Shown here in pieces: positions 28,873 to 29,005 of a stretch of 64,000 nucleotides of DNA (the first letter of the stretch is position 1; each line of letters begins with the position of its first letter). This stretch comes from Escherichia coli (lineage in GTDB: Bacteria > Pseudomonadota > Gammaproteobacteria > Enterobacterales > Enterobacteriaceae). The stretch lies in NCBI RefSeq assembly GCF_030384885.1, contig NZ_CP128613.1; one strand, written 5' to 3'. Both the position numbers and the translations under genes were made by a program. Below the pieces are notes generated by a model. That model was given only the letters and a program-made list of their open reading frames with translations. It was not told the DNA's origin and made no database searches.

Positions 28873-29005
28873 TACTTATACTCTAAATAATTCAAGTTGC
28901 AGGAAGGCGGCAAGCGAGTGAATCCCCAGGAGCTTACATAAGTAAGTGACTGGGGTGAGCGAACGCAGACGCAGCACATGCAACTTGAAGTATGACGAGT
29001 ATAAC
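28873..29005. repeat. ERIC (enterobacterial repetitive intergenic consensus) element
   Basis: Contains the ERIC core GTGAATCCCCAGGAGCTTACATAAGTAAGTGACTGGGGTGAGCG (both ERIC PCR primer sites) with imperfect terminal inverted repeats. Confidence 0.85.

Follow-up and report, generated by a model that had tools for sequence, protein, structure and literature searches.

A polymorphic ERIC element downstream of panC in Escherichia coli, and its longer allele

The panC-rpnC interval and its repeat element

The stretch of Escherichia coli DNA analysed here, 64,000 nt in full and called the window below, holds the convergent genes panC, for pantoate--beta-alanine ligase (28021-28872, + strand; TAA stop at 28870-28872), and rpnC (yadD), for a recombination-promoting nuclease (29093-30001, - strand), with an interval of 220 bp between them. 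Both were found as open reading frames and named from RefSeq annotation, in the case of panC that of a strain matching at 100%, and the two sources agree on the convergent arrangement reported by the first-pass annotation. That annotation placed an ERIC element at 28873-29005; the element is indeed there, but we trimmed its boundaries to 28877-29003, that is, to 127 bp including a TA at either end. The surrounding 501 bp (28700-29200) are 100% identical in strain 2013C-4282 and two other genomes, and in the PGAP annotation of the matching strain the site carries no repeat feature. A 100-aa open reading frame runs antisense (28749-29051, - strand) through the end of panC and the entire ERIC, with …YTRHTSSCMCCVCVRSPQSLTYVSSWGFTRLPPSCNLNYLEY… in its middle, a string already described as the open frame on the reverse strand of ERIC (Delihas 2007, Table 1a, PMC2759123); we rejected it as a gene and regard it as an artefact of ORF finding.

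The element proper, TACTCTAAAT...GACGAGTA, spans 123 bp (28879-29001) as delimited by consensus identity and RNA fold, and the panC transcript reads it in its + orientation. The TA copies of the target-site duplication, which have no strand of their own, lie at 28877-28878 on the left and 29002-29003 on the right. Counted with its TAs, the ERIC begins 4 nt past the panC stop, the element proper 6 nt past it, and the whole ends 2 nt before a terminator-like hairpin. The left terminal inverted repeat is the A/U-rich arm TATACTCTAAATAATTCAAGTTGCA (28877-28901, + strand) and the right one is TGCAACTTGAAGTATGACGAGTATA (28979-29003, + strand), both from inverted repeat I1; their outer helices show compensatory changes across copies. 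Taken at 28876-28901 and 28979-29004, the arms are 26 nt long and 85% complementary. Between them lie the binding site of primer ERIC1R (28918-28939, - strand; the + strand reads GTGAATCCCCAGGAGCTTACAT) and the sequence of primer ERIC2, AAGTAAGTGACTGGGGTGAGCG (28940-28961, + strand), each an exact match to a primer confirmed in the literature, with 233 papers giving both primer strings, and a central conserved hairpin, CCCCAGGAGCTTAC / GTAAGTGACTGGGG (28924-28955, + strand; inverted repeat I2), in which 28924-28937 pair with 28942-28955.

The feature is a plain, textbook member of ERIC, also known as IRU or RU-1, and the kind of element is thus already known, having been described by Sharples & Lloyd 1990, Hulton et al. 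1991 and Wilson & Sharp 2006. The 44-nt ERIC core GTGAATCCCCAGGAGCTTACATAAGTAAGTGACTGGGGTGAGCG, which is the reverse complement of ERIC1R followed by ERIC2, is matched at 44 of 44 positions at 28918-28961 and has no match in 100 shuffles. As the consensus, we used the 127-nt E. coli sequence of Wilson & Sharp, printed as its reverse complement in Delihas 2007 (Table 1a, PMC2759123); against it, 28877-29003 align end to end and without gaps at 113 of 127 positions (89% identity), and against Salmonella SeRU-1 from the same table (PMC2759123, Table 1a) at 119 of 127. The local alignment score against the consensus is 99, the maximum in 200 shuffles being 16, and no other segment of the 64-kb window scores above 14, such that the scan with core and consensus gave no second ERIC there. 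Shuffle controls for the fold, the core match and the alignment score rule out a chance palindrome. The first-pass annotation had named alignment to the consensus and RNA folding as checks on its call of a full-length ERIC/IRU with both classical primer sites, terminal inverted repeats and an imperfect palindrome, and the ungapped alignment, the exact primer sites, the complementary arms and the single long hairpin described below all bear that call out.

For a comparison across species, one genome per species was scanned with a 20-mer of the core, giving 119 stretches, from which 94 full-length copies were extracted and 70 distinct copies aligned (alignment A3). The 20-mer was found in Escherichia, Citrobacter, Enterobacter, Kosakonia, Buttiauxella, Pectobacterium, Dickeya, Yersinia, Serratia and other genera. 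The window copy agrees with the consensus of the 69 copies from other species at 114 of 123 positions, ranking 15th of 70 in closeness. Within E. coli, a query containing the ERIC has a median of 7 megablast places per genome, and the source genome holds some 7 further ERIC-sized matches.

As + strand RNA, the element folds into a single long imperfect hairpin with a minimum free energy of -55.8 kcal/mol (z -8.47), the fold of the - strand being weaker (-48.7 kcal/mol, z -6.44). The consensus structure of the 70 copies contains 31 pairs, and 96.8% of its cells are standard pairs; changes on both sides are found at 15 of the 31 pairs, in 81 cells, compared with 13.9 under column shuffles and 12-21 when the 3' partner is slid by 1-3 columns. 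The window itself provides an example: T at 28882 and A at 28998 pair as U-A and compensate each other, the consensus pair being C-G. The central helix (helix 5) is paired to 99.9% and hardly varies among the 70 copies, which makes it uninformative for covariation, and part of it is fixed by the search pattern, the core 20-mer. Covariation across copies supports the long ERIC hairpin, though on its own it cannot tell pairing of RNA from pairing of DNA. An asymmetry between the strands favours RNA over DNA as the level of pairing: every one of the 70 copies folds more stably in the + orientation (on average -53.8 vs. -43.1 kcal/mol), and several positions that are G-U on the + strand, among them the invariant G57-U73, would be C-A on the other.

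Insertion polymorphism and the longer allele

Strains K-12, CEA601S and FMU073332 have an empty site that reads GGCGTAATACT-TA-ACTGGCGC with a single TA (alignments A1 and A2), and relative to it the window contains 125 extra bases and a TA at each side of the element. A single TA in the empty state and TA/TA in the filled one indicate an insertion that duplicated its TA target, a duplication described for ERIC before (PMC2759123; PMC2229807, Table 1; PMC3184786). Among the 94 sampled full-length copies, 34 are flanked by TA/TA and 62 have exactly 123 bp between the flanks. A separate observation from the sample concerns Escherichia sp. MOD1-EC7003, whose twelve near-identical ERICs at twelve loci, nearly all flanked by TA/TA, suggest that this Escherichia lineage outside E. 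coli has recently gone through a burst of transposition.

In a set of 5,426 complete E. coli genomes, 399 have a filled panC site, counted as matches over at least 80% of the 501-bp query across it, and about 92%, K-12 included, have an empty one. Among the matches listed, the short form present in the window occurs in 18 genomes, each time as one single piece, and the remaining filled matches come in two pieces and measure 570-572 bp. These carry a 71-bp internal insertion, the mark of a longer allele that a query made of the panC flank and the 71-bp insert finds at the panC site in 409 genomes (about 8%). The ERIC after panC is thus an insertion polymorphism whose short allele is rare, and the location given by the first-pass annotation is borne out, to which the polymorphism among strains, the placement between stop codon and terminator and the longer allele are now added. 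The locus varies in other respects as well. The 3' end of panC and the panC-rpnC interval diverge by up to 6-9% over 250 bp between E. coli strains (28600-29300; L002-L009), FMU073332 has a partial rpn duplication, and in one strain the position of rpnC is annotated as an ISNCY transposase; the panC-rpnC locus is structurally unstable, with the ERIC present or absent.

In the long allele, a module of 71 bp, ACAAATTCG…CTCTCATT, follows GAGTG at the site that corresponds to 28920/28921 of the window, whose own copy has the canonical core junction GAGTG|AATCCCC and no module. The long allele also differs by two substitutions, GTTAGCG for GTGAGCG (T, not G, at 28957) and CAATTTG for CAACTTG (T, not C, at 28984). 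In its fold (-88.8 kcal/mol, z -9.25), the module forms extra local hairpins inside the ERIC stem. In a subset of O157:H7 genomes (e.g., L002, strain 4276), the left arm of the long ERIC is extended by a tandem duplication of 7 bp (CAAGTTG), possibly a sublineage marker. ERICs with insertions of ~70 bp at fixed internal sites are said to have been described by Sharp in 1997 and by Wilson and Sharp in 2006, and we found a related module at the same internal position in ERICs of Kosakonia. Within E. coli, the module is present as a single copy in 612 of the 5,426 genomes, including the 409 with the long form at panC; the one example checked among the remaining module-bearing genomes is a second long ERIC near ybfA. 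The module lies at 322-392 in L008 (O55:H7 CB9615), at panC, and at 601-671 in L129, near ybfA.

How the two alleles are related can be approached through position 16 of the element (TTCAAGTTG), which is A in the short copy of the window and in both long copies, at panC and near ybfA, and G in all 16 of the canonical short Escherichia copies examined. We considered A16 as a marker of the panC locus and dismissed it, as the long ERIC near ybfA has it too; rather, A16 marks the long subfamily. Outside E. coli proper, a long ERIC also occupies the panC site of Escherichia sp. E1V33, where both variable positions are the canonical ones, G and C. Together with the common site, orientation and A16, this form suggests that a long ERIC inserted at panC just once and that a few lineages later lost the module exactly or were converted by a canonical copy. 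The short allele thus probably derives from the long one, as far as the comparison of sequences can tell. That short and long ERICs were inserted independently at the same TA appears less likely, given that the alleles have site, orientation and A16 in common; yet the last 250 bp of panC are 6-7% apart between the haplotypes with the short and the long form, which speaks against a simple allele history. More specifically, the short panC allele might have arisen by the exact removal of the 71-bp, three-hairpin module from the long allele, restoring the canonical junction. This step we regard as doubtful. The module boundaries have microhomology of only 1 nt; hints in favour of the removal are the shared A16, the long form of E1V33 and the single-copy state of the module in 612 genomes. 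If it did take place, the module would come or go as a discrete unit with exact ends inside an ERIC already in place, whether as a nested mobile element or through templated conversion from canonical copies, and the alleles at panC would be a naturally matched pair in which to study the mechanism.

Transcript position, orientation and likely consequence

The terminator scan called only one terminator-like site in the panC-rpnC interval, the hairpin TGGCGCTACGGCTGATGGCGCCA at 29006-29028 followed by ATTATTAATT (29006-29038 in all, + strand). Strains that have the ERIC and strains that lack it show no variation in columns 29002-29028, and where the site is empty the hairpin starts 8 nt past the panC stop. 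It is the probable panBC terminator, although this is a consensus match only and the tail ATTATTAATT provides no clean U-tract. The ERIC was itself considered as the panC terminator and rejected, since its hairpin has no U-tract and is followed by ACTGGCGC, the scan made no call there, and a separate conserved hairpin comes next. With the ERIC located upstream of the terminator-like hairpin, the panBC mRNA should contain it in its 3' UTR, transcribed together with the genes; a model transcript of 180 nt (-68.3 kcal/mol) shows the ERIC hairpin next to the terminator stem, each folding independently of the other.

Transcription of ERICs with neighbouring genes is described for the family, with an effect on mRNA stability that depends on orientation (PMC2229807, PMC3184786, PMC10969869). 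In Yersinia, ERICs are reported to share transcripts with their neighbours, and in one orientation only the ribosome is reported to hinder folding of the hairpin and so to expose an RNase E site, destabilising the upstream message (PMC2229807, PMC3184786, PMC10969869). The general remark of the first-pass annotation, that such elements are transcribed and can affect the mRNA stability of their neighbours, is accurate for the family (De Gregorio 2005, summarised in Delihas 2008, PMC2229807); for the copy after panC, transcription is predicted and any effect on stability is putative. Our literature search returned no useful account of an ERIC adjacent to panC or of orientation details.

The orientation can be assessed from the sampled copies themselves. 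panC reads into the + orientation, the one giving the more stable RNA. Among the 70 copies, long ORFs with a stop within 10 bp of the ERIC read into '-' in 22 cases and into '+' in 8; collapsing orthologous loci leaves ~17 '-' vs. 8 '+' (two-sided binomial p ~0.11), and dropping also the ORFs that end at a TAA inside the ERIC leaves ~17 '-' vs. 4 '+' (p ~0.007, by the same test), numbers that come from mechanical ORFs, from a sample picked by the core 20-mer and with orthologous loci only partly removed. The '-' orientation of this survey we take to be the 'B' orientation of De Gregorio. The panC arrangement is thus in the minority among stop-proximal ERICs, and in it the A/U-rich arm UAAAUAAUU is the 5' arm beside the ribosome and not an exposed 3' arm.

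Taken together, these observations suggest the following course of events. A non-autonomous miniature inverted-repeat element of Enterobacterales would have inserted at a TA between the panC stop (4 nt upstream of the element) and the terminator-like hairpin (2 nt downstream), duplicating the TA. It would now be transcribed within the panBC 3' UTR, as an imperfect hairpin of ~125 nt directly adjoining the terminator stem. As a point against this reading, the left arm would have its first bases covered by any ribosome that terminates at the end of panC, and some translation-dependent remodelling of the hairpin may occur. The A/U-rich arm would lie 5', beside the terminating ribosome, and the arrangement would differ both from the usual stop-proximal one and from the one proposed to destabilise through RNase E. 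As the orientation is not that of the proposed destabilisation, little or no consequence is most likely: this ERIC would most likely be a near-neutral, tolerated passenger or, at most, a mild structural barrier at the 3' end that slightly stabilises the panBC message. For the reading as a whole, that of a TA-duplicating ERIC in the panBC 3' UTR that is near-neutral and polymorphic and whose short allele probably comes from the long one, we would give a probability of roughly 0.85.

Several other roles can be imagined for the element. As an active negative regulator of panBC, it would have its hairpin blocked by ribosomes terminating 6 nt upstream, and an exposed RNase E site would lead to degradation of the message. 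Such a mechanism has been proposed for the stop-proximal ERICs of Yersinia (PMC2229807, PMC3184786, PMC10969869), and the element proper does start just 6 nt past the panC stop. The reported effect depends on orientation, however, and here it is the A/U-rich arm that lies 5', under the ribosome, in an orientation that is the minority among stop-proximal copies; besides, ~92% of E. coli have no ERIC at the panC site. A destabiliser of the RNase E type is therefore less likely than a passenger or mild stabiliser, and we consider it improbable. Far less credible still is an independent small or antisense RNA in the manner of the Vibrio AS5 RNA. While the whole of the V_AS5 model (RF02818, positions 1-129) can be aligned to 28876-28999 of the + strand at E = 2e-10, its score of 49.8 bits is about half the gathering threshold of 96 and reflects shared ERIC ancestry rather than membership; a scan of the + strand upstream of the ERIC gave no promoter-like site, and the ERIC is located within the panC 3' UTR.

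Finally, the element could act at the level of DNA, as a hot spot of recombination or cruciform formation linked to the RpnC nuclease, and so explain the variability of the locus. The panC-rpnC interval and the 3' end of rpnC are unusually variable, the difference of 6-7% between short- and long-form haplotypes and the partial rpn duplication in one strain would fit, and covariation is blind to the distinction between RNA and DNA pairing. On the other hand, the variability is present in empty-site strains too, the systematic G-U asymmetry between the strands points to RNA rather than DNA, and ERICs are found at many loci with no rpn gene. Of the roles considered here, this appears to us the most improbable, and the near-neutral passenger in the panBC 3' UTR is the one that we prefer.

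Significance and comparison with known systems

The finding is of little relevance except to annotation, where the ERIC calls for a repeat-element label and the antisense ORF of 100 aa should be disregarded. The polymorphism in presence and length (empty, 127 bp, about 198 bp and about 205 bp), situated beside a core gene, has a practical use, as it can be a lineage marker and feeds into strain-specific ERIC-PCR bands. In addition, the empty, short and long alleles make a natural series on whether an ERIC in a 3' UTR alters the fate of the mRNA.

Compared with ERIC (IRU, RU-1) as known, the window copy is equally long (127 bp, with a TA at either end), matches the core and the primer sites without a mismatch and shows both the terminal inverted repeats and the long hairpin; it agrees as well in the TA target duplication, in the intergenic position beside the 3' end of a gene and in occurring in multiple copies per genome. 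Nothing essential sets it apart. Of its 127 positions, 14 deviate from the published E. coli consensus, and the majority of these fall in the right-hand inner segment GACGCAGCACATG, which other Escherichia and Salmonella copies have too. With the long ERIC variants, known at the panC site from O157:H7, O55:H7 and ~400 other genomes, it has the TA site, the orientation and A16 in common, and it differs from them by the absence of the 71-bp module and by G instead of T at 28957 and C instead of T at 28984.

Among the Rfam families, none matches at the ERIC site at gathering thresholds, and a permissive search gave sub-threshold matches only (V_AS5, Ysr49, isrH and others), from which it follows that Rfam has no ERIC family as such. 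The sole gathering-threshold match in the window is the sRNA tp2 (RF02030) at 53678-53791 on the + strand, with 101.8 bits over the full length of the model. V_AS5 (RF02818) resembles the window copy in aligning over its full length on the + strand and in the same long-hairpin architecture, yet with 49.8 bits against a gathering threshold of 96 the ERIC is homologous to the family and not a member. The full-length but sub-threshold alignment fits the reported ERIC relatives of V. cholerae, which are ~20 bp shorter and have eroded terminal repeats (PMC2267715).

More distant parallels are found in Correia/NEMIS of Neisseria and RUP of pneumococcus, which likewise form part of the transcripts of adjacent genes and influence how the mRNA is processed (PMC2229807). 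Like ERIC, they are small, non-coding MITEs that target TA, have terminal inverted repeats and duplicate the TA on insertion; unlike the various ERICs discussed above, they have no sequence relationship to it. No transposase is known to mobilise ERIC, RUP is tied to one of the IS630 type, and Correia elements work by way of RNase III.
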